From the NCBI GenBank assembly GCA_964016885.1, contig OZ024742.1, forward strand, positions 119,102,001 through 119,166,000: 64,000 nucleotides of DNA. The letters run 5' to 3'. Shown one piece after another: positions 15,263-47,874 of the stretch. Positions within the stretch are counted from its first letter, which is position 1. Every line of letters starts with the position of its first letter. The position numbers and the translations under genes were made by a program. The DNA is from Eledone cirrhosa. Taxonomy: Eukaryota. The notes beneath the pieces are model-generated. The model was not told the origin of the DNA. It searched no databases and saw nothing but the letters and a program-made list of their open reading frames with translations.

Positions 15263-15313
15263 GAGTTCGTCTATTCACTAATATTTTGTATTTATTTTTC
15301 AAAATAGTCGATT

Positions 15314-19042: not shown

Positions 19043-19088
<46 letters not shown>
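19043..19088. repeat. (TTA)n tract, left end of the retrotransposon array
   Basis: Direct reading; further tracts at 22528-22546, 28562-28604, 31369-31433, 34547-34618, 40489-40514, 41205-41260. Confidence 0.95.
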
Positions 19089-19089
<1 letters not shown>

Positions 19090-22000
19090 AGTTGCATTTA
19101 TCTTGCTTTATGTTCATACGAGTTATCACCAAGTCACAACCAGTGACCTCAAGAGACAACAAGGTCCGCCATGTTCAAGAAAGAACATACATATTCACAC
19201 ATGCATCTTTAGTGTTTAGACTTGTGATGTACTTATATTGACAGAATCTTCCTTAGTATATGGGCAGTTCCCATTAGTACTATCTTTTGTATTTCTCCTA
19301 TACGCGGGTTTCCTGGGATTTGCGATATGTAATCATTAGACCCCTTAGGTATCATTCCCAGAGCGCCTACAACCACTGGTATTGTTTTAGTTCTCAATTT
19401 CCACATTTTTCCAATTTCTATCTCCAGGTCCTTATACTTGCTCAATTTTTCAAATGTTTTTATAGATACATTCTTGTCTATTGGAACAGACATATCAATT
19501 AGCAGGCATACCCTCTTTTGAAAGTCTTTCAATATTATATCAGGTCTGTTTGCATCTATTTTTCGGTCTGTTTGGATGCTAAAGTTCCACAAGATTGAGA
19601 TGTGATCTTTTTCAAGTATGGGAGGTGGTTGATGCTCCCACCAATTCTTTTGATGGGGCAGGTCAAAATGCTTACACATTATCCAATGTATGTATTGTGC
19701 AGCTCTGTCATGCCTGTTTAGGTATTCGGTTGGAGCTATAGGACTGCACATTGAAATTATATGGTCAATGGTCTCTGGTTGTTTTTTGCATACACGGCAT
19801 AATGGGCTGCACCCATTTTTTATTATGTTGGCTTGGTAATTTTTTGTTGGAAGACACTGATCTTGTGCCGATATAATCAGTCCTTCAGTCTCCGATTTCA
19901 GTCCAGAGGATGCCAACCACTGATGGGTTAAAGTTTTGTCAACATCAGGATTGTTAGCTCGCTCTGGGTATTTTCCATACAGAGGCTTTTCTTGCCATTT
20001 CTTAGCCAGTTTCTGTAGCAGTTCTTTCTTTGCAGTTACTTTTACCTGCTTTGCTTTTTCTGTGTTTTCCATTTCAGCAGTAAATGGGACTTCTGAAATT
20101 TGTAGTCCATTACTGTATCTTTGTGCATCTTTTGTAATGGAATATGATCTTTTGATGCTTTCGTGTTTCAAAACGAGTTTGATCATCCAATCATGTGATT
20201 CCCTTAGATATGTAGATAATCCAATTGTTGCAGTTTTCAACGCAATGTCTAACTGGATTAACCCACGTCCTCCTTCTTTCCTAGGGAGATATATTCTATC
20301 TATATCTGCCTTAGGGTGATGCATTCTGTGCATGGTTAAGAATTTTCGAATTTTTGTATCGAGCCTATGGCTCTCTGTGCTTGACCAGTTGATGACATTG
20401 TAACTGTAGGTTACTACTGGTATGGCAAGCGTGTTTATGGCATCGATCCTATTCCTTGCATTCAATTCCGTTCTTAAGATTGCTCTTACTCTGCGGTAAC
20501 ATTCCTTCCTTATCCTTTCCCTCATTGTCGAGTGCTTGATTCCGTCTCCTTCACAAACACCTAGATATTTGTAAGTTTTTTCTTGATCAAGTTCTCTTAT
20601 CACGTTCCCCCGATCAAGATTAATGTCTGAACTCTTCAGCAGCTTTCCTCTGGTGAACGTTGCTTTGGCGCATTTATCTAGTCCAAACTCCATTTTAATG
20701 TCATCACTGAACTGCTTCACAGTGGATAATAGCCCTTGCAATTGTTCATCATTTTTTGCAAATAGTTTCAGGTCATCCATGTAGAACAGGTGATTAATGG
20801 TTTTGTCATAGACTTTATATCCATGTTTTGTTTCATTGAGCATTTGACTTAATGGTATAAGTGCGATGCAGAATAAAAGCGGTGATAAAGAGTCACCCTG
20901 AAAAATTCCACAATTAATATTAACTTCTCCAGCTTCCAGTGATTTTGTTTCACTATTCAAAAGGAGTGTCGTTTCCATGTCTTCATACTGAATGACAAAA
21001 ACCTCCTGACAACGGGGGATACTTTGAAAATCTCTAAACATTTTTCAATCCAACTGTGTGGCAAACTATCAAATGCTTTTTTATAATCTATCCAAGCAAT
21101 CGATAGATTTTTGTGTCTATTATGACAATCTTCCAGTATCATTTTGTTAACCAGAAGCTGATCCTTACAGCCATATGAGCCTCGTTTACACCCTTTCTGC
21201 TCAATGGGAAATAGGTCATTTGTTATCAGGTGGTCATATGTGTATTCAGTTAGGACTGATGTTAAAATTTTATACATTGTGGTCAAGCAAGTTATCGGTC
21301 TGTAATTTTTGGGATTGTTTGTCTCATCATTCTTCGGAAGCAGGAATGTAATGCCGTTAACTAGCCATGAAGGTATCTTTTCTGGCTCCTTAACTATTTC
21401 ATTGTAAAGTTGGGCTAACAGCTCATGAGACTCTGTGAAGGCATTTATCCAAAAGTTTTGTATTTTGTCTTTTCCTGGGGATTTTCATTTGCTGGTTTTT
21501 CTTAGAGTCAAGCGCAACTGTTCAACTGTTATATTTTCCCATGTTTGTTCCTCAAGGTGAGCTGTATCTTTCATTTGTCTGTCTATCCATGGGGCATGTA
21601 TGTTATGAACTTTTTCTTCGGCCCAGATCTTTTCCCAGAATTCTTGCACTTCCTCCTTGGGTGGTATTGATTTAGCAGTTATTGTTGACTTACCAATTTT
21701 TCTGTAGAAGTTTCTTTGGTTGTTTTTGAACATATTATTGTCCTTATAGAATCTAGATCGTTTTTCAAAGCGCCTTATACGAGCAGCTTTGGCCGACACT
21801 TTTTGCTTGATTATTTCTATCAGCATGTCTATGTCACATGTTGATTTTATACTGTACTTTTTTTTCAATTTTCTAAGTTTAGTTTGTTTAACATGTTCAC
21901 CTACTTTATAGTTTGTTAAAATTTCTATGTCAGATCGGAGAAGGTTTATTTGGCGATTGATGTTCTCTTGCCAAGTAGATTTCTTGTGGGAATTCCTTTG

Positions 22001-22527
22001 TTTTTTCATCTTCACTCCACATAAGTGAGTGGTGACTTTAGCCGATGCATAATAGAGATGATTTAAATCAGTAATGTTTAGTTTGTTTGTGATGATAATG
22101 TTTTTGAGAATTATGTTAGTCTTGTGTATTATCTTTTGGTTCTGTTTGGAGTTCTGGATCTTAGGGAGGGTGTCTGGTTGCCCCATGTCAGATTCTTTCA
22201 TTTTCATCCATTCGATCATAATTTCATCCTTCAAGTTGGCAAGTTCATTCTCATTCATTTCTTTATCATTTACGATCTCATTATTTTCATTTGGAGTTTC
22301 ATCCTGAGCATGCACTCCCTCCACTTTTTCGATCCTTTCTTTAATTTGTTCTGTTGCCAGTGATTCCGCCCCAACCCTGGGATTCGAAGTGTTACAGTTT
22401 ACCTCGTTTTCACTGACACATGTTTCATTTTACCTTCGCTGACTTTGTGCTAATAGCTTGATCTGATCAATTTCTATATCAGTTAGTAACTTTTTTCTTA
22501 CAATATTTCTTCGTATATTGGCTAGTT
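19089..22527 (-). mobile_element. R4/Dong-clade non-LTR retrotransposon, family A, 5'-truncated
   Basis: RT (AWIDYKKAFDS, GIFQGDSLSP, HLFYMDDLK), CCHC (CRVCKKQPETIDHIISMC), RLE (NRPDII...IDMSVP...EKLSKYKDL); (TAA)n at both ends. Confidence 0.92.
19233..22527 (-). pseudogene. RT-RLE polyprotein with stops and a frameshift
   Basis: ORF pieces 21485-22324, 20957-21286 and 19233-21041 are consecutive parts of one protein. Confidence 0.9.
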
Positions 22528-22761
22528 TATTATTATTATTATTATTGAATGCCATGGTTGACGGAGGCTCGGCTCTGTAAGGTATAGTAATTTTTAACCG
22601 TTAAAACAATTGTAAATTGTTTAAAACTTGAACCAAATTGTTGATAAAGACACCCTCCTCCTCGTGAGAGGGGTCTTTCTGTCCGTTATTTGGCCCTTCG
22701 GGGTTAAATAACCAGTTATTGGGGTTTTGTACCCAAAATTTCATTTTAAACAAAAAACAAC

Positions 22762-24856
22762 ATGGCTACGAAAAAGAAATTTCATACGTCACTCCCACTC
22801 ATTCCGTCTTCTTCTTCCTCAATCATCACTACAGCAGAGAGAAGATTGTCTCTCTCCCTCCCTTCTTTAAATGTGTCTCTCTCCCTCCCTTCTCTTTCGC
22901 AAGTGACGAAAGAAAAGAAAAGTCTCGTGCAAATCGTGCAAGGTTTCTCCACGACGACAGCGACGAAACAGGTGTGCGGGAAATACGAAAACCCAGTTCA
23001 TTCGTCTGACGTCAGGAATAATAGCAGTAGCAGCCGTAATAACAACTGCAACAGTGACAATGAAAACAACAGTAGCAGCCGCAACAGCATCACCAGCAGC
23101 ATAAACAACAACAGCATTAGCAGCAGCAACACCAACAACAACCACAGCAACAGCGGCGGAGGCAGTAGTCGTAGTACCTGCAGCAACAACAAAAGTACCA
23201 GCAGCTCTGACGACAACAACAACAGCAGAGAAAAACCAATCTCATTTGCAGGTATTGCGAAAAACTTGGAAACAATCCTCATAACAAATGAGGAATTAGA
23301 GGAAGCGAAGAAGATGGTGACAAAGAACGGACACCGAGCAATCTGCAAGGCAGCGGAAAAATTTTTCAAAACCCAAGAGCACTGTACGGTCACGTACCGT
23401 ACAGTAAGTACAAAATCCCGTAGGGTGGAAAGAGCCACAGAGGCCCAAATACAAAAAGCCTTGGGGTCTGTGTGGCAGCGGAAAACGCACATCACCCGAG
23501 GCAAAAAATATGCCACCGTAGACGTACTTTTTGCCACACCCCAGGAGGCAAAGGCCCAATCAGTAGTGACCCTAAGGAGCGAGGAAATGGTGTTGGTGCC
23601 CTCCTACTGCGGGCAAAAAATTGTGAGGGTCAAACTGACCCACGCCCCCCCCCCCCGGAATGACCCCTTCTTGGCTGGCCGCGTCTGTCCTAATCGGAAT
23701 CGAGGACAAAACAACTGTACTGCAAGTACAGAAAAAAGTAAGAGAAGATTGGGTCGGCTCCTCCATTGAGATGCTAATCCAAACCAACCAGGAGTGCATC
23801 GAAGCTATCCCGGATGTGATAGACTTCGATAACGGCACTCAACTGCCCATAAGTGTTGAGGGCAAACGCCCGAAATGCTTTCGCTGTGGATCGAAGACTC
23901 ACCTCAGGGCCTTCTGCAACGAGAAGACCCTGAGAAAGGAGAAAACCCCCCTCCTTCCGAATCCGGCTCCACGGCTACCAGCAACAGGACAAGCGGCAAC
24001 CAGGAACGATAGGTCCGTGGCACCCATACCCACGCCACGGAAATCAAAAACAGCAGCAGCAGTGGAAATATTAACAACAACAACAGCAATACCAAATGCA
24101 GCTGCAACAGAGACTCCAGTGCAAACATCACCAACAACAACAAATGAAAGAGTGGAGCTGGTACCCCTCCCCGACCTCACAGAATCAGACATGGAGTGTG
24201 AGGTGGGAGAGGGATGGCAAAAGGTCGCAAGAAGGCACAAACGCAGAAGCAGCGCATCGTCGCCTTTGAAAAGGGAGGAAAGAAATGAGAAAAGGGTAAA
24301 GTCTACTGCAAAGAGACCCACAGCAGCAACAACACCAACACCATCACCACCCACACTAGCACCACCATCACCACCGGCGACAACCCCACCGCCAACAACA
24401 CCTTCAACACCACCACCACAAGCACCAACATCGCAAACACAACAACAAAACACACACACCCAGAAACAACGACAAGAAAATAGCAGAACCACACCCCACC
24501 CCCAGAAAAACAAATGCACGGCAATAAATACACACAACAAGAAACTAATGACTTACATAATTGAACACACAGACATTTCACAACAGGACTACATAATACC
24601 AGCACCAATCAAAACGCCAACTAACATAAGACTGCTAAAAATAGCACAGAAACAATACACAAACATTAAAACGAAATTCCCCAACGCAGTTGGTGATTTC
24701 AGGGACCTAGGAGGAACCATCAATCGAAGAGTATACTCAGACATTCTCTTAGAAGAGCCGACGACCAGCCGAAGGGACGATTCAACGGTCCCTTCACCAG
24801 ACGATCAAGTGAAAAGGGATGTAAAAACCATCCCTCCTCTACCAAAAGTACGGTAA
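22762..24856 (+). pseudogene. Tx1 ORF1 (RRM-like + CCHC knuckle), frameshift at poly-C ~23645-23656
   Basis: SFAGIAK, YATVDVLFATPQEA, CFRCGSKTHLRAFC, GWQKVARR; ORFs 22762-23769 and 23660-24856. Confidence 0.85.
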
Positions 24857-24891
24857 GTGGTCTTTCCCATCTTTTCCACTCTATTTTAAAC

Positions 24892-27800
24892 ATGACCTCA
24901 CTCAGAATAGGCAGCATAAATGCGCGTGGCTTGGGGTCGTCATGGAAGCAGGGTCACCTGCTCAACGACCTCAGGTCACTAAACATAGATGTAGTGGCCA
25001 TCAGCGAGACCAGAATCTCCGAAGCACGGGCCTTCGTACCGATCTTCGGCGGCTACGATGTGTACGCATCTCCCAGCCGTCCTGGATCGGGTGGTGGAGT
25101 TGCTGTGCTTTTTCGGAGAGGTTTGGATCTCGCCATACGGGCCATCTTCCTGGACCCAGAGGGTAAGCTGGTGGTGCTGGACGTGACCAGCGGAGACGGG
25201 CAAGCTTTCAGGCTAGTGGCCGTCTATGCCCCGACAGGAGCAGGGCGGCCTGATTTCTTCCGGCGTCTGGAGACCTTTCTTTGAACGTCCCGCTCTTTAG
25301 TGTTAGTGGGCGACTGGAACGGGATCTTAGATGCACGCTGGGACTGTGTGGGATTAGCGGATAGGGGTGGAGGGTGCAAGAGCCTCACCAACCTGCTCAG
25401 GCGTTTTGAACTGTCTGACAGGTACCGATTGGATTTCCCGAATGTGCCAATGTGGACTTGGACAAACCGCATAGGGTCATCCAGATCATATCTAGATAGA
25501 GTATTTTGTAGGGAAATAGATAGGTCTAGCATAGGCTGTCCACAATTCAAGATAGTCAGCTACACGGACCACAAATTCGTGATCTGTGTGCTTGACTTAG
25601 ATAGGCTTCATAGACGAGGACCCGGCTACTGGAAGCTAAACGCGTCCTTACCAGCGCGCAAGGCCTACAGAGACCGGATTAGCGAACTAGTTAAGCGGGC
25701 GTTGACGGGGGCCATCGTCAACAACAAGTGGTGGTTTGCTCTGAAAAGAGCGATTAGAATAGAATCGATTAGGTTTAGTAAGGCTTTAGCAATAGAGAAA
25801 AATAGAGCAGAGGGAGAACTAGTTAGAAAATTAGACGAGGCGCTTAGCAAAGGCATTGCGACCGACGTGCTTGCGGCGAAATTGGCCCTTGACCAATTCT
25901 TCAATGCAAAGCACGAAGGCTGCGTTGTCAGAGCTAGGGTGCGTGCTCTCAGACACGAGGGGACGAAAGCCGTTCAATGGGCCCGAGTGGCGGAGGCGCG
26001 TCGTGGCAACAAAGCCACGATCCGGTCTTTGGTGGACCACGACGGGCGCATGCTACTCGATCCCGGGCAAATGTGTGAAGCTTTTCAGCGACACTTCGCT
26101 CAGCGGTTCGGGGGCAGCGGGGGGCCGGGTAGAGGGATGGACTTTAGTGTCTACCTCGACGGACTGCCGCGGCTCTCGGCCACTGAGGCGAAGTGTTGCG
26201 AAAAGCCGATAACAGCCGCTGAAGTAAGGGAGGCAATGACTGGCTGCACAAGGGTAAATCGCCTGGTTTGGATGGTCTGCCCTATGAACTTTACGTACAG
26301 ATGCCAGACTTGTTCGGAGGCCTCTTGGCGGACGTCTACTGCAACTGGCAACAGAACGGGAGAATTCCCAGTTCTGTGAGCCGAGGAGCGGTGGCACTAC
26401 TGAGAAAGGATCCGAACAAGGGGGATAACATAGACAATTTCCGGCCCATAACTCTGCTAAACACAGAGTTTAAGATTTTGGCCAAGGTGCTAGCAAAGAG
26501 GTTGGCGCTTGTAGTTGGTGGTCTGGTGGGAGAGGCGCAGACATGCGCCATTCCCGACAGATCCATCCACGACAACCTCCACCTCATGCGATACATCGTA
26601 GAGAGGGTAGCTAGGGAACCTGGCACGGGTGGGTCCTTGATCAATTTAGATCAGTCGAAAGCTTTCGATAGGGTCGACCATCGTTACCTAGCGGCAGTCC
26701 TGAGGGCGGCTGGCTTTGGGCCCGTCTTCAGAGGCTGGATCGCTGCCATGCACAGCGACATCTGCTCTGTGGTGAGAGTGAACGGTCACCTGTCGGAACC
26801 GTTCAACATCATGCGCTCGGTCCGCCAAGGATGTCCCCTCTCGTCCCTATTGTACGTATTGACTCTCGAGCCATTACTGCACAAACTGGAGACGTTGAGT
26901 GGGGTCCCGCGCGAACTAGGATGCGGAAGATCCGTATCAGCATATGCGGACGATGTCACCGTAGTGGTGTCGAACGCCAAACACATCGAGGCGATCGGCA
27001 CTACACTAAGAGAATACGAAGCGGTGACAGGAGCAATGATCAACCAGGAAAAGTCAGTGGGCCTGCAGCTCGGCACCTGGAGAGGCAGGTCCATGCCGTC
27101 CAACAGCGTCGTCGGACGCTGGACGGACGGACCGGTTAAATTGCTAGGGGTCTGGTTCGGTCCGGACCTCCAGACGGACAAAAACTGGGACGAGGTGACG
27201 AGCAGGGTGGCTTCTCTCACCCAGAAATGGGCCGAGAGGAAGCTATCCCTGAAAGGTCGAGCGGAGGTGGCTAACGCGTACATCGCGTCCGTCATCTGCT
27301 ACCGCCTGACCGTCGTACCTTGTCCTAAGCCTCGCCTGACTGTGCTGGAGCGTTTGCTCTTTCGCTTTTTGTGGAAGGGACGCGCTCCGATGGTCAGGCG
27401 GTCCATCTGTTGTCAACACCCGCTACGTGGAGGGCTGGGCATGCCGTGGCTGATGATGCGCAGGCACGCGCTCAGGCTACGACATCTCCACCTCTTCCTC
27501 GACGGTGATCAGGTGTGGTCGCCGTTTGCTAGACGCGTGTTTCCCCAGCTCGTTTCCTTGACGGAGCTGCAGTCCTGGGTCAAGCGAAGACCGAGAGGGA
27601 GCGCCTGGAGACTGGAATGTCTTCAGGCGCTCACAGCCCTCGACCAATCGGGCAATGTGATCGGTGGAAACTCCACCTCGGCGTTCTATAGAGGATTAGT
27701 GGAGGGGAAGAGCGACGACGTACTTGGGGAAACTCTAGGCGTCGACGAAAATCAACTAGCCAATCTCTTCGGAAGAACTTTCGGGCCAGGGCCTATGGAC

Positions 27801-28311
27801 AACTTCCAGAAATCTCTGGCCTGGCAGTGCTACCGAGGAGCCTTGCCAGTTCGGGATAAACTCTACAGGCATGGAGGTGCCGTCAGCCGGGCATGTCCGA
27901 GATGCGCGCAGGGCGACGAAACCGTCCTGCACGCACTCGTCCAGTGTCCGAAAATTGCTGACTTGTGGGTTTATGTCGAACACCTGCTGTCGCGTTTAGG
28001 ACGGATCCGGCTATCATCTGAGTCCATCGTGAGGATTGCCCCGCCCTCCTCCTTTAGCCGGGAAGGGCAGGCAGTTTTTATCTGCCTGGTGGCCATGGCG
28101 AAAGAGATAGTATGGTGGACACGTTTGAAAGGGCTGAAGACGAGCACTTACCTCTTCGGTGATGCTCTGATTGACTTTTTCAAATTTCATTTGAAAAGGA
28201 AAATCAGAGTAGAGAGGGAAGTGCTCTCTTCAACAGCATTTTGTTGAAAGATGGGTGAGAGAAGCAAGAATGGCCCGAGTGAATGGGCCTACTCTGAGCA
28301 TATATCTGTAA
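24892..28311 (+). pseudogene. Tx1 ORF2 (apurinic endonuclease + RT + zinc finger), few disablements
   Basis: GSINARGL, AISET, VYAP, VGDWN, YLDRVF, TDH, GYWKLN, FRPITLLN, DQSKAFDRV, RQGCPLS, AYADD, GGLG, CPRC..ETVLHALVQC. Confidence 0.92.
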
Positions 28312-28559
28312 ATTAAAGGTGGAAAACTGGGAGAGGGCACTTGCCTTGGTGGTCAGGGTCATTGTGGCTTTTTACTGGGCTTTCTCCACAAATGTCCCTC
28401 CGAAGTCTCCCCCCTATTGGGGAATTTTTCATTGTTATTTTTTGTTACATCCTCTGTTTTTGTTTTTTACACGCAGAAATGCCCATTTGTACCGTCCTGC
28501 ATTGTCCTGCACTGTCCTTAATGTCTACTTTATGTAAACCCTTGTGGTTAATAAAGAAA

Positions 28560-28594
<35 letters not shown>

Positions 28595-28604
28595 GTTATT
28601 GTTA

Positions 28605-31367
28605 TTCCTTGAATCTCAGTCATTGATGTTGGTTAACTGGAAAGTCCGTTGGATTGAATATCAAGCCACTACCTGCAGCCTCAGATATTCAGGACGTATC
28701 GGAGGGTTCTTGCCGTTCCAAGCAAGCATGCCTTTTGAAGCGTTCCAAAAAGCGTGAAGGGGCCGATTTTCTTTAACCATCCCTGGAAACCTTTGGAGAT
28801 AGTCCCCAGTGCGCCTATGACAATCGGGATCACTTTGACTTCATGGCAGTTCCAAATCCTTTTCACCTCCCACTTTAGGTCCTGGTATCGGTTAATTTTC
28901 TCCCTCTCCTTCTCTTGCACTCTCGTGTCGAACGGGCAGGCCACATCCACAATCAGGCACGATCTTTTTTCTTTGTCCACAACCACCAGGTCAGATCTAT
29001 TGTGTTCCAGTTTTTTGTCCGTCTGTATCCTAAAATCCCACAGCACCTTCACCTGACTGTTCTCCATCACCGCCTCTGGCCTATGCTCATACCATTTCTC
29101 AGAATGTGGTAGATTGTTTACTTTGCACAGGTGCCAGTGGATCACCCTGCCCATCACATCGTGTCTCCAGCCCTTATAGTGGGTCTGGGCTAGGTGTTTA
29201 CACTCGGACACAATGTGAGCCACAGTCTCCTCTCTCTCTCCACAGATCCTGCACAGTGGGCTAGCCTCCTCCTTGTAGATATGGTGCTTCAACCACTTCG
29301 TTTTGAGGGCCTGCTCCTGCGCAGCCATTAGCATTCCTTCTGTAGCCTTTTTGAGGTCTCCTCTTCTCAACCAGTTCCATGTCTGTGGATCTCTAAATTC
29401 AGTTTTCTCAAAGAAGGTACTATGAAGGGATTTTCCCTTAAGGCTGCTCTTCCTCCTTGATGTTATTTCCTCCTTGGGTATCCCCTGGCCTACTGTCCCC
29501 TCCTTCAGTACAGCTCTGAGCATTGGCTCCTTACTATAGGTCACGTATTTGTATAGGTTGTTTTTCTCCATCTGAACACAGTCCTCTATGCTGATAAGAC
29601 CTCTTCCACCCTCAGATCTCCTTAGGTAGAGTCTATCGACATCACTCCTCTTGTGGGACATGTTGTAGATAGTCAATAGCTTCCTAGTCTTCCTATCCAT
29701 TTCTTTGTGTATTTGTTCAGCAACATTCCATCTCAGAATTCCCGCACTGTACCTAATAATAGACACAGCTCGGGAATTTACTGCGCTTATGGCATTTTTG
29801 CTGTTCAGATGTGACTTCAATACGCTCCTTACTCTCCGAATGTATTCAGTTCTTAACAATTCCTTCATTTTTTTGTTCTTTATGCCATCAGCCTCCAGAA
29901 CGCCCAAATACTTGTATCCTTCCTCAGAGTCAATTTCCTTTATCATCTCACCTGTTGGTATCTGGATCCCGTTACTTCTGCTCAACCTACCCCTCCTCAT
30001 CACAATGACTCCACATTTACCAATACCAAACTGCATACATATATCACTGCTGAAAATACGGACAGTGTCAACAAGCACATCCAACTCCTTCTCACTTTTC
30101 CCGAAGAGCTTAAGATCGTCCATGAAGAGGAGGTGATTGATGGTAAGCTCTCCCCTTCCCAACTTGTATCCTGCTCTCACTTTTCGCAGCATAATGGTCA
30201 AGGGCATCAGGGCAAGGACAAACAACAGAGGGGACAGGCTATCTCCCTGGAAGATACCTCTCTTGATCTTCACGCTTCCCAAGGATACTCCAGTTGATGT
30301 CAACTCTGTCTCCCAGGACCCCATACTCCTGCCCAGCAACTGTCTGATGTTATCTACCAACCTGAAGATCTCCAGGCTTTTGGTGATCCAGGAATGAGGC
30401 ACCATGTCAAATGCCTTTCTGTAGTCTATCCATCCCATGGCAAGATCAGTGTGTCTCCTCCTGCAATTCCCCATTACCATCTTATCAATAAGCAACTGGT
30501 CCTTTGTACCACGTGACTTCTTTCGGCATCCTTTCTGTTCGTCCGGCAACAAGTTGTTTGTGTGGAGGTGATGGTAGATTTCCTCAGACACAATGCTCGT
30601 CAACAGTTTCCACATTACGGGCAGACATGTGATAGGTCTATAGTTGGTAACATCATTACCCTTGATTCGGTCTTTCATTATCAGAACTGTAGTACCTTTT
30701 GTCAACCACTCTGGCACCTCACCCGACACCAAGCAGTCATTGAACATGGCCGTCAGCTTCGGGTGGAGGGATGTTAAATGTTTAATCCAATACCCCTGCA
30801 CACCATCTGGGCCTGGTGATTTCCAGTTGGTTAGTTTTTTGGCTTGCCCCTTAAGAGTTTCAACTGTGATACTCAAATCAGTCTGTTGCTGTGCCTGCTC
30901 ACCGATCTCCCTCTGTACTGTCTCAATCCACCCTGCCTGGGCATTGTGTCTAACATCCTGCTCCCATATTCCTCTCCAGAATGTTTTAGCTTGTTCCGCC
31001 CCAGGGATCAAGTCGTTGCTTCTTTCTTTCCCCTCAAGCTGTCCAAACAGCATCTTCTGGTTGTTGTCGAACATGCGGTTCTGTTTATACTGACTGACTC
31101 TGTTCTCGTATCGCCTGATTTTGGCACTCTTTGCGTTGCTTCAATTCCTCTATGATAATATTTAGCTTTTTACTCCTAGTTTTGTATTTTATTTCCAGTC
31201 TATTTTTAGTGCCTATGTTTTTTAGTGTCCCATTCAGTAGTGACTCAAGCTTTCCCATGTCATTTCTCATTTCCCCGATTTGCCCACTCAGTCGCTTCTT
31301 CCACCACGGCTCTGCTCTTTCTTGTCTGTTGTTTCCTCTCGCTTTTATACCAAGTAGTTTCCTCACC

Positions 31368-31368
<1 letters not shown>
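28605..31368 (-). mobile_element. R4/Dong-clade element, family B copy 1, 5'-truncated
   Basis: RT+CCHC+RLE ORF; (TAA)n at both ends. Confidence 0.92.
28681..31074 (-). CDS. Open 797-aa RT + restriction-like endonuclease portion of R4/Dong polyprotein
   Basis: NWKSPGPD, NYRPITCL, WIDYRKAFD, GIFQGDSLSP, FMDDLK, CRICGEREETVAHIVSEC, NRSDLVV, EKINRYQDL. Confidence 0.88.
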   Translation of the reverse strand: MFDNNQKMLFGQLEGKERSNDLIPGAEQAKTFWRGIWEQDVRHNAQAGWIETVQREIGEQAQQQTDLSITVETLKGQAKKLTNWKSPGPDGVQGYWIKHLTSLHPKLTAMFNDCLVSGEVPEWLTKGTTVLIMKDRIKGNDVTNYRPITCLPVMWKLLTSIVSEEIYHHLHTNNLLPDEQKGCRKKSRGTKDQLLIDKMVMGNCRRRHTDLAMGWIDYRKAFDMVPHSWITKSLEIFRLVDNIRQLLGRSMGSWETELTSTGVSLGSVKIKRGIFQGDSLSPLLFVLALMPLTIMLRKVRAGYKLGRGELTINHLLFMDDLKLFGKSEKELDVLVDTVRIFSSDICMQFGIGKCGVIVMRRGRLSRSNGIQIPTGEMIKEIDSEEGYKYLGVLEADGIKNKKMKELLRTEYIRRVRSVLKSHLNSKNAISAVNSRAVSIIRYSAGILRWNVAEQIHKEMDRKTRKLLTIYNMSHKRSDVDRLYLRRSEGGRGLISIEDCVQMEKNNLYKYVTYSKEPMLRAVLKEGTVGQGIPKEEITSRRKSSLKGKSLHSTFFEKTEFRDPQTWNWLRRGDLKKATEGMLMAAQEQALKTKWLKHHIYKEEASPLCRICGEREETVAHIVSECKHLAQTHYKGWRHDVMGRVIHWHLCKVNNLPHSEKWYEHRPEAVMENSQVKVLWDFRIQTDKKLEHNRSDLVVVDKEKRSCLIVDVACPFDTRVQEKEREKINRYQDLKWEVKRIWNCHEVKVIPIVIGALGTISKGFQGWLKKIGPFTLFGTLQKACLLGTARTLRYVLNI

Positions 31369-31432
<64 letters not shown>

Positions 31433-31433
31433 G

Positions 31434-34400
31434 TTCTTTGAGTCTCAGTCATTGATGTTAGTTAACTGGAAAGTTTGTTGAAATGAATATCAAGCCACTA
31501 CCTGCAGCCTCAGATATTCAGGACGTATTGGAGGGTTCTTGCTGTTCCCAGCAAGCATGCCTTTTGAAGCGTTCCAAAAAGCGTGAAGGGGCCAATTTTC
31601 TTTAACCATCCCTGGAAACTTTTTGAGATAGTCCCTAGTGCGCCTATGACAATCGGGATCACTTTGACTTCATGGCAGTTCCAAATCCTTTTACCTCCCA
31701 CTTTAAGTCCTGGTATCGGTTAATTTTCTCCCTCTCCTTCTCTTGCACTCTCGTGTCGAATGGGCAGGCCACATCCACAATCAGGCACGATCTTTTTTCT
31801 TTGTCCACAACCACCAGGTCAGGTCTATTGTGTTCCAGTTTCTTGTCCGTCTGTATCCTAAAATCCTATAGCACCTTCACCTGATCGTTTTCTATCACCG
31901 CCTCTGGCTTATGCTCATACCACTTCTCAGAATGTGGTAAATTGTTTACTTTGCACAGGTGCTAGTGGATCACCCTGCCCATCACATCATGTCTCCAGCC
32001 CTTATAGTGAGTCCGGGCTAGGTGTTTACACTCGGATACAATGTGAGCCACAGTCTCCTCTCTCTCTCCACAGATCCTGCACAGTGGGCTAGCCTCCTCC
32101 TTGTAAATATGGTGTTTCAACCTCTTCGTTTTGAGGGCCTGCTCCTGCGCAGCCATTAACATTCCTTCTGTAGCCTTTTTAAGGTCTCCTCTTTTCAACC
32201 AGTTCCATGTCTGTGGATCTCTAAATTCAGTTTTCTCAAAGAAGGTACTATGAAGGGATTTTTCCTGAAGGCTGCTCTTTCTCCTTGATGTTATTTCCTC
32301 CTTGGACATCCCCTGGCCTATTGTCCCCTCCTTCAGTACAGTTCTGAGCATTGGCTCCTTACTATCAGTCACGTATTTGTGTAGGTTGTTTTTCTCCATC
32401 TGAACACAGTCCTCTATGCTGATAAGACCTCTTCCACCTTCAGATCTCCTTAAGTAGAGTCTATCGACATCACTCCTCTTGTGGGACATGTTGTAGATAG
32501 TCAATAGCTTCCTAGTCTTCCTATCCATTTCTTTTTGTTCAGCAACATTCCATCTCAGAATTCCCGCACTGTACCTAATAATAGACACAGCTCGGGAATT
32601 TACTGCACTTATGGCATTCCTACTGTTCAGATGTGACTTTAATACGCTCCTTACTCTCCGAATGTATTCAGTTCTTATCAATTCCTTCATTTTTTTGTTC
32701 TTGATGTCATCAGCCTCCAGAACACCCAAATACTTGTATCCTTCTTCAGAGTCAATTTCCTTTATCATCTCACCTGTTGGTACCTGGATTCCGTTACTTC
32801 TGCTCAACTTACCCCTCTTCATCACAATGACTCCACACTTACTAATACCGAATTGCATACATATATCATTGCTGAAAATACGGACAGTGTCAACAAGCAC
32901 ATCCAACTCCTTCTCACTCTTCCGGAAGAGCTTAAGATCGTCCATGAAGAGGAGGTGATTGATGGTAAGCCCTCCCTTTCCCAACCTGTATCCTGCTCTC
33001 ACTTTTCGCAGTACACTGGTTAGGGGCATCAGGGCAAGGACAAACAACAGAGGGGACAGACTATCTCCCTGGAAGATACCTCTCTTGATCTTCACGCTTC
33101 CCAAGGATTCTCCAGTTGATGTTAACTCTGTTTCCCAGGACTTCATACTTTTGCCCAACAACTGTCTGATGTTATCTGCCACCTTGAAGATCTCCAGGCT
33201 TTTGGTGATCCAAGAATGAGGCACCACGTCAAATGCCTTTTTGTAGTCTATCCATCCCATCTTATCAATAAGTAACTGGTCCTTTGTACCACGTGACTTC
33301 GTTCGGCATTCTTTCTGTTCGTCCGGTAACAAGTTGTTTGTGTGGAGGTGATGGTAGATTTCCTCAGACATAATGCTTGTCAACAGTTTCCACATTACGG
33401 ACAGACATGTGATAGGTCTATAGTTGGTAACATCATTACCCTTGATTCGGTCTTTCATTATCAGAACTGTGGTACCTTTTGTCAACCACTCTGGTACCTC
33501 ACCTGACATCCAGCAGTCATTGACCATGGTTGTCAGTTTCGGGTGGAGGGATGTTATATTTTTAATCCAATACCCCTGCACACCATCTGGGCCTGGTGAT
33601 TTCCAGTTGGTTAGTTTTTTGGCCTGCCCCTTAAGAGTTTCAACTGTGATACTCAAATCAGTTTGTTGGTGTGCCTGTTCACTAATCTCCTTCTGTACTG
33701 TCTCCATCCACACTGTCTGGTCATTATGTTTAACATTCTGCTCCCATATTCCTCTCCAGAATGTTTTAGTTTGTTCCGCCTCAGGGATCAAGTCGTTGCC
33801 TCTTTCTTTCCCTTCAAGCTGTCCAAACAGCATCTTCTGGTTGTTGTCGAACATGTGGTTCTGTCTATACTGACTGACTCTGTTCTCGTATCGCCTGATT
33901 TTTGCACTCTTTGCTACAATGCGTTGCTTCAGTTCCTCTATGATAATATTTAGCTTTTTCCTCCTAGTTTTGTACTTTATTTCCAGTCTATTTTTAGTGT
34001 CTATGTTTTTTAGTGTCCCATTAGTAGGGACTCAAGCTTTCCAATGTCATTTCTCATTTCCCTGATTTGACCACTCAGTCGTTTCTTCCACCAAGGCTCT
34101 GCTCTTTCTTGTCTGTTGTTTCCTCTCGCTTTTATACCAAGTAGTTTCCTCACCGTATTTGCTGTTGCTTTGAAGATATTGTTGCACTGGTGAAGGCTCC
34201 TCGCCTCAAGGTATGGGATGACTTTGTTTACCTTAGCTGTTGTTTCTTTTAACTTTTTCCTGTCTACAAATCTTAGGTTCATAGGTCCCCCACTATCATT
34301 GTTCAATTCATCTACCACTAAGTTTAGGATATCAACCAAATCTTGTTCTAGCCCGTCAGCATTCATCTCCTCAGTGGCCATATCTCTGTTCCAGGTATTA

Positions 34401-34544
34401 TTTATCTCAGCATTCAGATCATTGTCTGCTTCGAGTGGTTCCTCCGTTCTCTCGACCTCTTCACCTTCATTTCCCACTGGCTCGTTTGTTTGGCATACTC
34501 CACTCTCCATCTCCAAGCTAATCTCTCTGCTCAGTTCCTCCAGT

Positions 34545-34546
<2 letters not shown>
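31434..34546 (-). mobile_element. R4/Dong-clade element, family B copy 2, 5'-truncated
   Basis: ORF pieces 34010-34516, 31962-33854, 31510-31701 closely match copy 1; (TAA)n flanks. Confidence 0.92.
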
Positions 34547-34618
<72 letters not shown>

Positions 34619-34830
34619 GGCGACCTACGTAGTAAATCGTATTATCGTGAGCTCCGCAAAGGTTTGTTATTTCCGTTTGTTAAAAATTGCCATTTATGGA
34701 AATTTTTTATTGTTAACTATATATATAAGCGCACATACATTGTTTTCCGAAAAGGACACCCAAAAAGATTGGGGCCTTGTGCCCAAAATTTAAACTTTTA
34801 TGATTATCAAAAAATTTCTTTGAAAAAAAA

Positions 34831-36799
34831 ATGGCTAATTCACCACTGCACCAAGCAGCTGAAAGCCTTTCTCAGAAATTAACATCTCACACCGACACCA
34901 CCATTGTAAATGATTATACGTCTTCCAACACAAACAATTTAAGCACTAGCAATATTTTAAATTTGTCTCAGGCAGTCATTCATTTCCCGCCATTACCAAT
35001 GACTGCAGGTGTTAAAGCCGCCACCACCACCAACACCCCCACCACCACTGCGACAACAGAAACAAAAGGAAAAAATAAATCAACTCGTGATGTCGAAATA
35101 TTTTCAACCAAAATGGACTCTCCCAAACCGACTTTCACTGACGTCACCACCACCACAACTGAAACTAAAATTAATAATAACAAAAATAACGATAGCAACA
35201 ACAACAACAATGACATTAAAAAAACCACCCTGAGTTTTGCCAGAGTAGCAAAACAGTTCGAAGCATTTACGGTAACTCAGGAGGATTTAGAAAATGCCAA
35301 ACAAATGGTAAAGAAAGATGGGTACAGGGTCAGCCTAACCCCCCACCTAATAAAATGGAGCATCGGCGCCTATGCACCGTGTCGTATCGAACAATAAATG
35401 TAAAATCGCGCCGAGTGGAACGGGCATCCGAGTCCCAAATCCAAAAAGCTTTGGGATATGTGTGGGCAAGAAAAACCCACATCAGACGTGGGCAGAAGTA
35501 TGGAACCGTGGACGTATTCTTTGAAACACCAGAGGAGGCTAGAGAACACTCCATGGCCCCATTAAGAAGTGACGACTTCACACTCGTCCCAAGCTATTGT
35601 GGCCAGAGACTCGTAAAGATCAGGGTGACCCACGTTCCACCGGCCATCGAAATTCCCTGGCTAATAGCGGCCGTCCTCGCCGGCATCGAAGCCAACACAA
35701 AGATAATAGCAATAGCAAAAGAAAAGCAGGAGAACTGGTCCGGATCTGGGATGGAGCTCCTGATCCAAGCGGACCAAAAAAGCATTGAGGAGATCCCAGA
35801 GGTAATAGACCTCACTGACGGCAGCCACCTCACCGTAATTGTCGAGGGCAGAAGGCCTAGGTGTGTCGTTTGTGGTGAAGGAACCCACCTAAGGGCTTTC
35901 TGCCCTCAGGCTAAAAGGTTGAGGCCACCTCTCCTACCCACCCCAGTGACACAACCATCAACACCACCAGTAGCAGAGATGGCAGCAACAACTGTAGCAG
36001 CAACAACAGAAGCAACTATAACAGCAAGAACCCCAGCAACAGTAGCAAAACCAACACCACCACCACCAGAAAAACCAACACCACCACCACCCAACGCTTC
36101 AGAACTAGCACCAGCGCCTACACCATCCACCACGCCACAACCAAAACTAACGCCTGTGGAGGATTTTCCACTCCCCGGCCTATCACAACTGGAGACAGAT
36201 TGTGACGACGAGGAGTGGGAAACGGTATCAGGAAAAAAAAAAGAAACCAAAAAAGAAAAAATTCTCTTCCTTCCCCCTCCAAAAACAAAATACAGAGGGA
36301 AACAAATAAATTAACAAACAAAAAAGTTAGGACAGATATGCCACCATCCACACCAGCATCACCAACCCCATCAACCCAAACACCAACACCATAACCATCA
36401 TTAACCCCAACACCACCATCACCTACACCACAAAAGTCACCAAAGTGCGAAACAGAAACAAACCCACAACAAACGCAAACAAAACAAAACAACCAAAACG
36501 ATACACACTACATAGCATTAAATTTGAACAACAAGCAATTATTACACTACATCCAACACAACACCAGCATCACAGAAAAAGACTACACAACAACCCCAAA
36601 ATTCACACCACCTCCACACATACAAATCACTCGCATCACACAGAAAACGTACATGACACTAAAACAAAAATTCCCCAAAGACATCGGAGACTTCCGACAA
36701 GCACTCTCCAGGAGGATTTATAAGGACATCCTTCCTGAGGAGGCGACAAGCAGTGAAAAGGATGGAAAAACCGTCCTTCCCCTACGAGAAGTAAGGTAA
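34831..36799 (+). pseudogene. Tx1 ORF1 variant, frameshifted
   Basis: SFARVAK, YGTVDVFFETPEEA, CVVCGEGTHLRAFC, EWETVSG, ends LPLREVR*; pieces 34831-35397, 35355-36314, 36524-36799. Confidence 0.85.
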
Positions 36800-36833
36800 G
36801 TTGTCTTTCCCATCTTTTCCACTCCTTTTCAAC

Positions 36834-39800
36834 ATGACCTCACTCAGAATAGGCAGCATAAATGCGCGTGGCTTGGGGTCGTCATGGAAGCAGGGTCACC
36901 TGCTCAACGACCTCAGGTCACTAAAAATAGATGTAGTGGCCATCAGCGAGACCAGAATCTCCGAAGCACGGGCCTTCGCACCGATCTTCGGCGGCTACGA
37001 TGTGTACGCATCTCCCAGCCGTCCGGGATCGGGGGGAGTAGTTGCTGTGCTTTTTCGGAGAGGTTTGGATCTTGCCATACGGGCCATCTTCCTGGACCCA
37101 GAAGGTAAGTTGGTGGTGCTGGACGTGACCAGCGGAGAAGGGCAAGCTTTCAGGTTAGTGGCCGTCTATGCCCCGACAGGAGCAGGGCGGCCTGATTTCT
37201 TCCGGCGTCTGGAGACCTTTCTTGGAACGTCCCGCTCTTTAGTGTTAGTGGGCGACTGGAACGGGATCTTAGATGCACGCTGGGATTGTGTGGGATTAGT
37301 GGATAGGGAAGGAGGGTGCAAGAGTCTCACCAACCTGCTCAGGCGTTTTGAACTGTCTGACAGGTACCGAATGGATTTCCCGAATGTACCAATGTGGGCT
37401 TGGACAAATCGCATAGGGTCATCCAGATCATATCTAGATAGAGTATTTTGTAGAGAAATAGATAGGTCTAGCATAGGCTGTCCACAATTCAAGATAGTCA
37501 GCTACACGGACCACAAATTCGTGATCTGTGTGCTTGACTTAGATAGGCTTCATAGACGAGGACCCGGCTACTGGAAGCTAAACGCGTCCTTACCAGCGGG
37601 CAAGGCCTATAGAGACCGGATTAGCGAACTAGTTAAGCGGGCGTTGACGGGGGCCATCGTCAACAACAAGTGGTGGTTTGCTCTGAAAAGAGCAATTAGA
37701 ATAGAGTCCATTACGTTTAGTAAGGCTTTAGCAAAAGAGAAAAATAGAGCAGAGGGAGAATTAGTTAGAAAATTAGACGAGGCGCTTAGCAAAGGCATCG
37801 CGACCGACGTACTTGCGGCGAAATTGGCCCTTGACCAATTCTTCAATGCAAAGCACGAAGGCTGCGTTGTCAGAGCTAGGGTGCGTGCTCTCAGACACGA
37901 GGGGACGAAAGGCGTTCAATGGGCCCGAGTGGCGGAGGCGCGTCGTGGCAATAAAGCCACGATCTGGTCTTTGGTGGACCACGACGGGCGCATGCTACTC
38001 GATCCCGGGCAAATGTGTGAAGCTTTTGAGCGACACTTCGCTCAACTGTTCGGAGGCAGTGGCGGGCCGGATCGACGGATGGACTTTAGTGTCTACCTCG
38101 ACGGACTGCCGCGGCTTTCGGCCACTGAGGCGGAGTGTTGCGAAAAGCCGATAACAACCGCTGAAGTACGGGAGGCAATGACTGGCTGCACAAGGGGTAA
38201 ATCGCCTGGTTTAGATGGTCTGCCCTATGAACTTTACGTACAGATGCCAAACTTGTTCGGAGGCCTCTTGGCGGACGTCTACTGCAACTGGCAACAGAAC
38301 GGGAGAATTCCCAGCTCTGTGAGCCGAGGAGCGGTGGCGCTGCTGAGAAAGGATCCGAACAAGGGGGATAACATAGATGATTTTAGGCCCATAACTCTGC
38401 TAAACACAGAGTTCAAGATTTTGGCCAAGGTCTAGCAAAGAGGTTGGCGCTTGTCGTTGGTGGTCTGGTGGGAGAGGCACAGACATGCGCCATTCCCGAC
38501 AGATCCATCCACGACAACCTCCACCTCATGCGATACATCGTAGAGAGGGTAGCTAGGGAACCTGGCACGGGTGGGTCTTTGATCAATTTAGATCAGTCGA
38601 AAGCCTTCGATAGGGTCGACCATCGTTACCTAGCGGCAGTCCTGAGGGCGGCTGGCTTTGGGCCCGTCTTCAGAGGCTGGATTTCTGCCATGCACAGCGA
38701 CATCTGCTCTGTAGTGAGAGTGAACGGTCACCTTTCGGAACCGTTCAACATCATGCGCTCGGTCTGCCAAGGATGTCCCCTCTCGTCCCTATTGTACGTA
38801 TTGACGCTCGAGCCATTACTGCACAAACTGGAGACGTTGAGGGGGGTCCCGCGCAAACTAGGATGCGGAAGATCCGTGTCAGCATATGCGGACGATGTCA
38901 CCGTAGTGGTGTCGAACGCCAAACACATCGAGGCGATCGGCACTACACTAAGAGAATACGAAGCGGTGACAGGAGCAATGGTCAACCAGGAAAAGTCAGT
39001 GGGCCTGCAGCTTGGCACCTGGAGAGGCAGCTCCATGCCGTCCAACAGCGTCGTCGGGCGCTGGACGGATGGACCGGTTAAATTGTTAGGGGTCTGGTTC
39101 GGTCCAGACCTCCAGACGGACAAAAACAGGGACGAGGTGACGAGCAGGGTGGCTTCTCTCACCCAGAAATGGGCCGAGAGGAAGCTATCCCTGAAAGGTC
39201 GAGCGGAGGTGGCTAACGCGTACATCGCGTCTGTCATCTACTACCGCCTGACCGTCGTACCTTGTCCTAAGCCCCGCCTGACTGCGCTGGAGCGTTTGCT
39301 CTTTCGCTTCTTGTGGAAGGGACGCGCTCCGATGGTCAGGCGGTCCATCTGCTGTCAACACCCGCTACGTGGAGGGCTGGGCATGCCGTGGCTGATGATG
39401 CGCAGACACGCGCTCAGGCTACGACATCTCCACCTCTTCCTCGACGGTGATCAGGTGTGGTCGCCGTTTGCTAGACACGTTTTTCCCCAGCTCGTCTCCT
39501 TGACGGAGCTGCAGTCCTGGTTCAAGCGAAGACTGAGAGGGAGCGCTTGGAGACTGGAATGTCTTCAGGCGCTCACAGCCCTCGACCAATCGGGCAATGT
39601 GATCGGTGGAAACTCCACCTTGGCGTTCTCTAGGGGATTAGTGGAGGGTAAGAGCGACGACGTACTTGGAGAAACTCTAGGCGTCGACGAAAATCAACTA
39701 GCCAATCTCTTCGGAAGGACTTTCGGGCCGGGGCCTATGGACAACTTCCAGAAATCCCTGGCCTGGCAGTGCTACCGGGGTGCTTTGCCAGTTCGGGATA

Positions 39801-40243
39801 AACTCTACAGGCATGGAGGTGCCGTCAGCCGGGCATGTCCGAGATGCGCACAGGGCGATGAAACCGTCCTGCACGCACTCGTCCAGTGTCCGAGCATTGC
39901 TGACTTGTGGGTTTATGTCGAACACCTGCTGTCACGTGTAGGACGGATCCAGCTATCAGCTGAGTCCATCGTGAGGATTGCCCCGCCCTCTTCCTTTAGC
40001 CGGGAAGGGCAGGCAGTTTTTATCTGTCTGGTGGCCATAGCGAAAGAGATAGTATGGTGGACACGTTTGAAAGGGCTGAAGACAAGCACTTAACTCTTCG
40101 GTGATGCCCTGATTAACTTTTTCAAATTTCATCTGAAAAGGAAAATCAGGGTAGAGAGGGAAGTGCTCTCTTCCCAGCATTTTGTTGAAAGATGGGTGAG
40201 AGAAGCAAGTATGGCCCGAATGAATATGAGTATGTGTCTGTAA
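36834..40243 (+). pseudogene. Tx1 ORF2, frameshift ~38432 and stop at 40091-40093
   Basis: Same APE, RT and CCHC motifs as copy A. Confidence 0.92.
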
Positions 40244-40514
40244 ATTAAAGGTGGAAAACTGGGAGAGGGCACTTGCCCTGGTGGTCAGGGCCACTGTGGT
40301 CTTTTAGTGGGCTTTCTCCACAAATGTCCCTCGGAAGTCTCCCCCCTATTGGGGAATTTTTCTTTGTTATTTTATTTCATCCTCTGTTTTTCTTTACACG
40401 CAGAAATGCCCATTTGTACCGTCCTGTATTGTCCTGTACTGTCCTTAATGTCTACTTTATGTAAACCTTTGTGGTTAATAAAGAAAACATTATTATTATT
40501 ATTATTATTATTAT

Positions 40515-41203
40515 TCCTTGAATCTCAGTCATTGATGTTGGCTAACTGGAAAGTCCGTTGGAATGAATATCAAGCCACTACCTGCAGCCTCAGATATTCA
40601 GGACGTATCGGAGGGTTCTTGCTGTTCCCAGCAAGCATGCCTTTTGAAGCGTTCCAAAAAGCGTGAAGGGGCCGATTTTCTTTAACCATCCCTGGAAACT
40701 TTTGGAGATAGTCCCCAGTGCGCCTATGACAATCGGGATCACTTTGACTTCATGGCATTTCCAAATCCTTTTTACCTCCCACTTTAAGTCCTGGTATCGG
40801 TTAATTTTCTCCCTCTCCTTCTCTTGCACTCTCGTGTCGAATGGGCAGGCCACATCCACAATCAGACACGATCTTTTTTCTTTGTCCACAACCACCAGGT
40901 CAGGTCTATTGTGTTCCAGTTTCTTGTCCGTCTGTATCCTAAAATCCCACAGCACCTTCACCTGATCGTTCTCCATCACCGCCTCTGGCCTATGCTCATA
41001 CCATTTCTCAGAATGTGGTAAATTGTTTACTTTGCACAGGTGCCAGTGGATCACCCTGTCCATCACATCATGTCTCCAGCCCTTATAGTGGGTCTGGGCT
41101 AGGTGTTTACACTCGGATACAATGTGAGCCACAGTCTCCTCTCTCTCCCCACAGATCCTGCACAGTGGGCTAGCCTCCTCCTTGTAAATATGGTGTAAAT
41201 ATC
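40515..41203 (-). mobile_element. R4/Dong family B copy 3, strongly 5'-truncated (RLE only)
   Basis: ORF 40590-41132 with NRPDLVV and EKINRYQDL; same 3'UTR as the other B copies; (TAA)n flanks. Confidence 0.92.
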
Positions 41204-41260
<57 letters not shown>

Positions 41261-46426: not shown

Positions 46427-46535
46427 TTTATATATATTTATATATATATACATATACTTTATATATATATATATATATATATATAAAGAATGAATAATAA
46501 CAGGTAGACATCATAAAAAGGTAATTTATTCCGTG

Positions 46536-46647
46536 TGCTTACAGGTGTTTCCACGGTGGTACTGCAGCCTAGTTCCGCTACGTGCAAATTCACAAGTATT
46601 TGCAGAACTCGAATATCCAATGCTGTGACCACTGTTTCCTCAGAGCA
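46536..46647 (-). ncRNA. Hammerhead motif with very long stem II
   Basis: Minus strand TGCT-CTGAGGA-(ACAGTGGT...ACCACCGT)-GAAAC-ACCT-GTA-AGCA, then AATAAA. Confidence 0.7.
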
Positions 46648-47142
46648 GAATGGTAAATGTACAATGTAAAAACCCTTAAGTGGGGTTGTTGGGGAAGATA
46701 GAGTGGAACAGGAAGAGAGAAAAGTAGGGAAGAGGGAGAGAGAAGGAAAGATATGCAGGGGTTGGAGAAGTAGGAGAGAGTGGCTTGTAGATATCTTAAT
46801 CAAAATGTTATGGTAGGGGTTTTATTATACTGGTTACTATTGGAGAGATGCGTTGATAGTTAAGGTCGGAATTATTTATTGCCCCAGAGGGCAGGTTCAT
46901 AGATGTTGAGAGGGAGGTAGGTCAAAGGTGAGAGAGAGAGAGTGTAATGGATGTAGAGAGAGATATAGGTAGAGAGGGGAGAGATAAAGTATGTGTGGTG
47001 AGTGAACTTTTGGATTTGTAGTAGTAATCTAGGAATTGTACTGAGTTACCATGTATAGTGATAAGCAGTGTATTGTCTTGTAGTGTGGGGGGAAGAGAAG
47101 GTTGTTAGCTAGAAAGTGGTGTTATAGTTACGGGTTCGAATG

Positions 47143-47545: not shown

Positions 47546-47874
47546 TACTTTCCATATATCTCTCTCTACATCCATTACACTCTCTCTCTCTCACCTTTGA
47601 CCTACCTCCCTCTCAACATCTATGAACCTGCCCTCTGGGGCAATAAATAATTCCGACCTTAACTATCAACGCATCTCTCCAAAAGTAACCAGTATAATAA
47701 AACCCCTACCATAACAGTTTGATTAAGATATCTACAAGCCACTCTCTCCTACTTCTCCAACCCCTGCATATCGTTCCTTCTCTCTCCCTCTTCCCTACTT
47801 TTCTCTCTTCCTGTTCCACTCTATCTTCCCCAACAACCTCACTTAAGGGTTTTTACATTGTACATTTACCATTC

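Follow-up and report, generated by a model that had tools for sequence, protein, structure and literature searches.

Two unrelated types of LINE occupy one TTA/TAA microsatellite in opposite orientations in the octopod Eledone cirrhosa

The window analysed here is a 64-kb stretch of the Eledone cirrhosa genome (64,000 nucleotides of contig OZ024742.1, forward-strand positions 119,102,001 to 119,166,000; window positions below are counted from its first letter). It holds at 19044-41258 an array of six long interspersed nuclear element (LINE) copies that are parted only by TTA tracts of 18-69 bp. Four of the copies are of the R4/Dong type, all on the minus strand, and two are of the Tx1 type, both on the plus strand. 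We consider it very probable that these are six separate LINE copies, stacked in a single TTA/TAA microsatellite through independent insertions, with nicking predicted to fall on a different strand of the repeat for each of the two clades. The R4 half of this picture is known biology; the Tx1 half likely represents an undescribed target, shared with R4 in opposite polarity.

Array elements were assigned from their open reading frames (ORFs) and Pfam domains, and their order between the tracts is R4a(-), Tx1a(+), R4b(-), R4b(-), Tx1b(+), R4b(-). The left outer tract, (TTA)15 at 19044-19088, adjoins a copy of R4a (E1, 19089-22526, minus strand) that is 5'-truncated by about 540 nt and has a broken ORF with reverse transcriptase (RT), a CCHC knuckle and a nuclease of the PD..D..K type; it is 98.7% identical to a longer R4a copy on C1. 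After (TTA)6 (22527-22544) comes a full-length Tx1-type element of subfamily a (E2, 22545-28562, plus strand), with frameshifts in ORF1 and in ORF2, the latter encoding an apurinic/apyrimidinic-type endonuclease (APE), RT and CCHC. E2 ends in AATAAAGAAATCA without poly(A), and is 98.9% identical to intact copies on C1. The next tract (28563-28606) consists of (TTA)10 (28563-28592) plus TTGTTATTGTTATT, an R4b tail variant seen again at other loci, and leads to E3 (28607-31370, minus strand), a 5'-truncated R4b with an 819-aa frame open through the C-terminus. Beyond (TTA)20 (31371-31430) plus TTGTT, together 31371-31435, lies E4 (31436-34547, minus strand), which belongs to a second R4b subfamily (92.8% to E3), and is 5'-truncated and broken. 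The (TTA)23 tract (34548-34616) precedes E5 (34617-40489, plus strand), a full-length, frameshifted Tx1-type element of subfamily b. The last element, E6 (40516-41204, minus strand), is a 689-bp 3' fragment of R4b with the nuclease domain and 3' untranslated region (UTR), enclosed by (TTA)8 (40490-40513) plus TT, which fill 40490-40515, and by the right outer tract, (TTA)18 at 41205-41258. The seven perfect (TTA)n tracts have 6-23 units each and all belong to the array, and no TTA/TAA run of more than four units was found elsewhere in the window.

Each of E1, E3, E4 and E6 aligns in a single block with a longer natural member of its own family, and E2 and E5 do so with other full-length copies, so none of the six is nested in another; the sole additional bases between elements are TTG-type variants of the R4b tail. 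An earlier note, made from the letters of this DNA alone, had described the same element order, spacing by TTA alone and lack of nesting, and the tract coordinates, the ORFs with their Pfam domains and these alignments bear that description out. The four R4 copies come from two families and every one is 5'-truncated, at differing points. Identity to other fetched copies is 98.7-99.0% for E1, E2, E3 and E6, and 96.3% for E5. Family, subfamily and 5' truncation point vary among the six, which favours a separate insertion for each. E2 and E5 are 95.4% identical over ORF2 and the 3' UTR, and give no DNA alignment over the 5' UTR and ORF1 (22545-24807 versus 34617-36751), where the ORF1 core retains 52-61% amino-acid identity; this difference likely stems from exchange of a 5' module between Tx1 subfamilies.

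The same target preference is found throughout the genome. Across the 3.0 Gb searched, copies were counted by exact 3'-end motifs, for which reversed-motif controls gave 0, resulting in 6,876 ends for Tx1a/b, 9,992 for R4b and 4,797 for R4a. TTATT directly follows 6,230 of the 6,876 Tx1 ends (90.6%), against the more than 20% of shared flank by which target specificity has been defined (PMC4494074), and all 30 best-matching Tx1 loci run on into TTATT. The first 30 Tx1 ends along C1 are followed by TTA runs in 26 cases and by other TT-starting flanks in 4, never by TAA. For R4 the 3' ends sampled in this unbiased way all continue into TAA on the sense strand (30/30 for R4b and 30/30 for R4a, hence 60/60). 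On the 5' side, a TTA run precedes all 41 full-length Tx1 ends. With 28 internal breaks set aside, the clean junctions of truncated Tx1 copies (n=33) comprise 19 with TTA, 14 with other sequence and 0 with TAA, and those of truncated R4 copies 36 with TAA and 5 other for R4a, and 54 with TAA, 9 other and 1 with TTA for R4b, which pooled is TAA in 90 of 105 and TTA in 1. The presence of TTA at truncated 5' ends means that the repeat is a target of Tx1, not merely its tail. Such targets are plentiful, as there are 77,251 genomic tracts of at least six TTA units (422,170 minus 344,919). The Tx1-TTA junction also occurs in contigs of four public runs bearing four organism labels (72 contigs in X1, which may stem from the source organism itself, 69 in X5, one in X6, and one of two loose ends in X7). 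Across runs X5-X20, the Tx1 3' kilobase occurs under 15 organism labels and in one metagenome, with word shares of 0.23-0.78, where close relatives and transfer would be indistinguishable; no RNA data set was listed as containing it, which speaks neither for nor against the model.

Neighbouring copies were analysed for C1:1-53.64 Mb, which has 252 listed ends. Gaps of at most 7 kb between neighbours number 118, against a mean of 8.2 and a maximum of 20 when the ends were placed at random 2,000 times. Where R4 and Tx1 are neighbours they point in opposite directions in 46 of 48 cases, and neighbours of one clade are parallel in 68 of 70. Of five C1 clusters that were picked for several Tx1 ends each and read fully, four are arrays of ~21-40 kb that obey the same polarity rule, and the fifth consists of two tandem Tx1 copies. 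The window array is not exceptional in this genome. Reading the flanks of 21 plus-strand tracts from the start of C1 showed that 12 adjoin R4 or Tx1, 4 a short interspersed element (SINE) and 3 the end of a presumably CR1-like LINE, while 2 have unrecognised neighbours. Flanks and orientation of Tx1 copies elsewhere are thus not random, and the clade-specific orientation that the earlier note saw in the window holds on C1. Its proposal of a TTA-specific Tx1 family sharing the Dong-type target gains genome-wide support from 3' flanks and 5' junctions alike.

Several observations weigh against this reading. TTATT is missing next to 646 of the 6,876 Tx1 ends, and a TTA run is absent at 14 of the 33 truncated Tx1 5' junctions, three of them being imperfect TTA-like targets and some the result of later deletion. 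Polarity is mixed in 4 of 134 clusters, and no target duplication accompanies the copies at L311, L315, L320, L321 and L324. Finally, the 73% of ends that lie inside clusters (C1:1-53.64 Mb) exceeds both the 48% of a genome-average self-amplifying model and the 32% of a Poisson model; site heterogeneity or undercounted families therefore contribute, and self-amplification is not isolated by these numbers.

Part of this would be expected if Tx1 did not target TTA, and its own (TTA)n 3' tail or 5' read-in instead seeded a tract that Dong-type elements entered later. The truncated junctions without TTA would fit, as would L311 and L315, two full-length Tx1a copies that have TTA next to the 5' end and not next to the 3' end, as though 5' repeats had moved with the RNA; moreover, LINEs and SINEs with ATT tails are present here (the CR1-like ends and the SINE). 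However, a tail cannot provide the TTA at the 5' junction of 19 out of 33 truncated copies, and off-target ends pass directly into TTAG, TTAC, TTGT or TTCT with no tail at all. The imperfect targets that were duplicated are themselves TTA-like, and Tx1 copies lie within CR1-like ATT tails at L326 and L327. All in all, we regard a self-made tract as unlikely. Somewhat less likely still is loosely AT-rich or random insertion, with the pattern arising from selection or passive accumulation and from unequal crossing-over that multiplies units. Array units duplicated in tandem, their flanks identical, do occur, at C1:55.43-55.45 Mb, L134-L137 (four copies, C2) and L058-L060, and passive accumulation has been offered as an explanation for Waldo-A/B (PMC3812793). 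Such insertion would not account for the exact phase, final CA followed by TTATT, that 90.6% of ends keep among copies 98-100% identical, nor for six window copies unlike in family, subfamily and truncation point, nor for a sister family that has nearly the same 3' end and goes to TATC (20/30 loci, with TTATT at 0/30). The least probable alternative, an assembly that fused unlinked copies at TTA tracts, would keep the same polarity, but is opposed by tracts of 18-69 bp that would fall far under long-read overlaps, by a window without N bases inside a 379-Mb scaffold, by the element-TTA junction in independent run contigs, and by tens of similar clusters on C1.

Both kinds of element exist as intact copies in the genome, R4b as well as Tx1 with ORF1 and ORF2. 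The intact R4b ORF (L200) is 1,130 aa long, with RVT_1 and the motifs CRICG..ETVAHIVSEC and RPD..VD..EK, and follows a single-ORF plan of RT, CCHC knuckle and C-terminal restriction-like (PD..D..K) nuclease. By sequence and by fold its best matches are R2 proteins (model fold match E 2.6e-36; predicted local distance difference test, pLDDT, 88). For the R4/Dong clade, a Myb/SANT-like N-terminal domain without zinc fingers has been described (PMC7998251); the model here has a confident four-helix domain of unassigned type at ~41-118, and the protein shows no zinc-finger motif. A hepatitis delta virus (HDV)-like ribozyme at the 5' end has also been described for this clade (PMC3774820); the R4 5' ends at L209 and L200 gave no Rfam match to a ribozyme, and a suitable model may be missing from Rfam. 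The 120 matches listed include no named Dong or R4 sequence, and the R4/Dong label appears to agree with architecture, fold and target. As TAACAACAA recurs at 16 of 116 R4b ends and TAACAATAACAA at 12 of 116, part of the R4b 3' run is likely copied with the element. A third R4-like family was observed at window positions ~13750-15310 (minus strand), internally deleted, with a 3' end like that of R4b and a 5' end adjoining (CATA)32; it may have a different target.

The Tx1 elements have two ORFs. Intact ORF2 (L193) encodes 1,139 aa with Exo_endo_phos, RVT_1 and zf-RVT by Pfam, that is, APE, RT and CCHC, in a fold of the L1 group whose best match is human L1 ORF2p (model E 7e-55; pLDDT 86.5). 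With R4b nearest to R2 proteins and Tx1 ORF2 nearest to L1 ORF2p, sequences and models point to two unrelated nuclease types, restriction-like and APE. In the Tx1 clade, unlike in mammalian L1, ORF1 combines RNA-binding domains with a gag-type CCHC knuckle. Here, ORF1 matches no Pfam family at cut-off and carries a CCHC knuckle, CFRCGSKTHLRAFC; its Atlas look-alikes are of the CCHC/ZCCHC3 type, at scores of 0.91-0.94, and no connection between ZCCHC3 and Tx1 was found in the published literature searched. Among named matches, ORF2 comes closest to a hypothetical protein of Argonauta hians (73%, RT region); unnamed products of a turtle, an alga and a wrasse are also listed. None of the ORF2 matches listed is a named Tx1 reference sequence, and the label seems to agree with architecture, fold and target.

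How would two unrelated site-specific lineages, inserting independently into one TTA/TAA repeat, come to point in opposite directions? In target-primed reverse transcription, synthesis is primed by the DNA strand that lies opposite the sense strand of the element. R4 would accordingly nick and prime on the TTA strand, and Tx1 on the TAA strand, at ...TAATAA^T or one base over, so that a different nicked strand for each clade would fix their opposite orientations. Poly(A) is absent among 124 distinct Tx1-type ends, off-target Tx1 copies have no added tail, and no more than 7 nt separate AATAAA from the Tx1 end, from which we infer a read-through RNA. This RNA would read into UUA repeats, pair with the nicked strand, and be copied from the final CA, much as pairing of read-through RNA with the nicked strand has been proposed for SART1 and R1Bm (PMC7265360).

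In imperfect targets, Tx1 insertions have duplicated 17 bp (L003), 14 bp (L056), 16-18 bp (L064) and 14 bp (L182), the first bases of these four duplications being the TT directly behind the final CA; a fifth copy has 10 bp. R4 flanks are pure repeats plus the variable R4b tail, hence these counts cover Tx1 only. That each insertion duplicates the target, as the earlier note stated, is therefore true of the four copies with 14-18 bp and fails for the five copies with none. Insertion would often duplicate 14-18 bp (5-6 units) and leave usable tracts on both sides, by which arrays could keep growing. R4b would deliver a short TAA-like tail that adds to the usable tract, and further tracts may come from tandem unit duplication, from ATT tails of CR1-like LINEs and from the SINE. 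Self-renewal of the tract through target duplication is partly shown. Cluster sizes are fitted better by a geometric than by a truncated Poisson distribution (log-likelihood -174.2 versus -178.5, about 4.4 log units). In some arrays whole units are also duplicated in tandem, be it by unequal crossing-over, by transduction or in the assembly.

Outside the array, at 56860-58611 (plus strand), the window holds a 5'-truncated member (T3) of a sister Tx1 family, at ~72% DNA identity, that resides in TATC-type repeats. Its 3' end, AATAAAGAAACA, is nearly the same, its preference is looser than that of the TTA families, and a first look yielded 2,403 candidates in the genome. At least four Tx1 families go to TTA (a/b, c, d and e), with ORF2 70-100% identical to the intact copy; ORF2 of the TATC family is 63-67% identical to the intact TTA copy, and only broken TATC copies were seen. 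The TTA families as one clade were rejected (p-AU 0.013, in the approximately unbiased test), the TATC family falling among them, in a test on query-anchored rows of frameshifted copies (the hairpin comparison below used such rows too) from which 13 poorly covered or redundant rows had been dropped and to which 4 database proteins had been added. That tree leaves the branching order among TTA d/e, TATC and TTA a/b/c open, so TATC specificity likely, if not firmly, derives from TTA. In the endonuclease hairpin, from a conserved Thr to Ser, NRIGSS is present in all nine TTA-family copies that cover the region, and NRSGTS in two of five TATC copies, the other three having one change or a gap with SGTS kept. 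The families thus differ at two hairpin positions, and as many other endonuclease residues differ too, a role of these hairpin-tip residues in setting TTA versus TATC is only a hypothesis. Grafting of the same loop in the L1 endonuclease altered nicking, and its authors rank flexibility over sequence (PMC1950540).

Other repeats accompany these elements. A SINE-like element of ~180 bp (L299:3390-3523, and many other loci) ends in GCCTTGTGCC.AAAGTAGAAACAA followed by TTAT, and joins arrays in the Tx1 orientation, with a TTA-type run after 63 of 94 ends and apparent 11-17 bp duplications at AT-rich sites. By eye, its 3' end bears a weak likeness to that of Tx1, on which ground it might conceivably be a Tx1 partner. 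Neither Rfam nor ARAGORN gave a tRNA match for it, and microRNA matches in Rfam were set aside as simple repeats or palindromes. At L292, L297, L298, L326 and L327, LINE 3' ends carry ATT tails, inside which a full-length Tx1 lies at L326 and L327; we take these LINEs to be CR1-like from a recognisable motif. The window further contains a 488-bp inverted repeat (46480-46967 and 47555-48042, 98.4% identical) that is set between (TA)n tracts and probably represents a DNA transposon residing in TA repeats, and, at 1-3000 (plus strand), GC-rich broken RT-like frames that have no Pfam match and presumably resemble a Penelope-like element.

How do these findings compare with known systems? Dong elements with (TAA)n as their target are reported from insects, molluscs and cnidarians (PMC7998251, PMC3812793, PMC3774820). 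Dong of Bombyx mori, DongAg, DongBg and Darwinula Dong1/2 have the same single ORF with RT and restriction-like endonuclease (RLE), and the same sense-strand (TAA)n; nothing essential differs here, where two R4 families, with 14,789 exact ends, share their tracts with Tx1. In Octopus vulgaris, Dong-R4 is abundant and recently active (PMC13282606), L1-Tx1 is likewise reported as recently active in octopods (PMC13282606), and octopus papers list Dong-R4 and L1-Tx1, with no targets given in the portions of their text consulted (PMC13282606, PMC8967140, PMC9115989, PMC10294476). Microsatellite targets named for the Tx1 clade are (TC)n for Kibi, (TTC)n for Koshi and (TTCC/TTTC)n for crocodilian Tx1 families (PMC4494074), all likewise APE elements with microsatellite specificity and a T-rich unit named as target. 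In contrast to the present elements, the part of that source consulted names neither TTA nor TATC, and describes no co-occupying RLE element. The literature searched yielded no Tx1 that is specific for TTA or ATT or that shares its site with Dong; outside that search lay Repbase, the supplement and Fig. 3 of PMC4494074, and Kojima & Fujiwara 2004, any of which could contain one. Koshi's (TTC)n is one base from the (TTA)n of the present Tx1.

TRAS1 and SART1 belong to the R1 clade. In Bombyx mori they enter TTAGG in opposite directions (PMC7265360), yet both are APE elements confined to telomeres, whereas here APE and RLE elements share an interspersed microsatellite of ~77,000 tracts. Keno, of the Tx1 clade (PMC4494074), and Utopia, an RLE element, both enter U2 snRNA genes and likewise represent convergence of APE and RLE on one target. 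Their target is, however, a gene and not a repeat that survives insertion, and mixed multi-copy stacks are not mentioned in the text consulted.

Every ingredient of the present system has a precedent, which makes it a good new case without a new principle. As far as the literature searched goes, the list of Tx1-type targets gains TTA and TATC, and APE and RLE lineages are seen on one interspersed microsatellite at more than 21,000 sites, which gives LINE hotspots in octopod genomes a concrete explanation. Tentatively, and as a possibility rather than an expectation, the TTA tracts of octopods could form a shared, self-renewing niche, seeded by ATT tails of CR1-like LINEs and the SINE and filled from opposite strands by two R4 and at least four Tx1 families. 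The Tx1 lineage would then have a target described nowhere so far, and two hairpin-tip residues (NRIGSS to NRSGTS), along with the pairing of read-through RNA, would have set its switch from TTA to TATC. If true, this would be a natural experiment in reprogramming the specificity of an APE endonuclease. With intact ORF2 copies and a differently targeted sister family at hand, the way in which APE reads microsatellites becomes directly testable.

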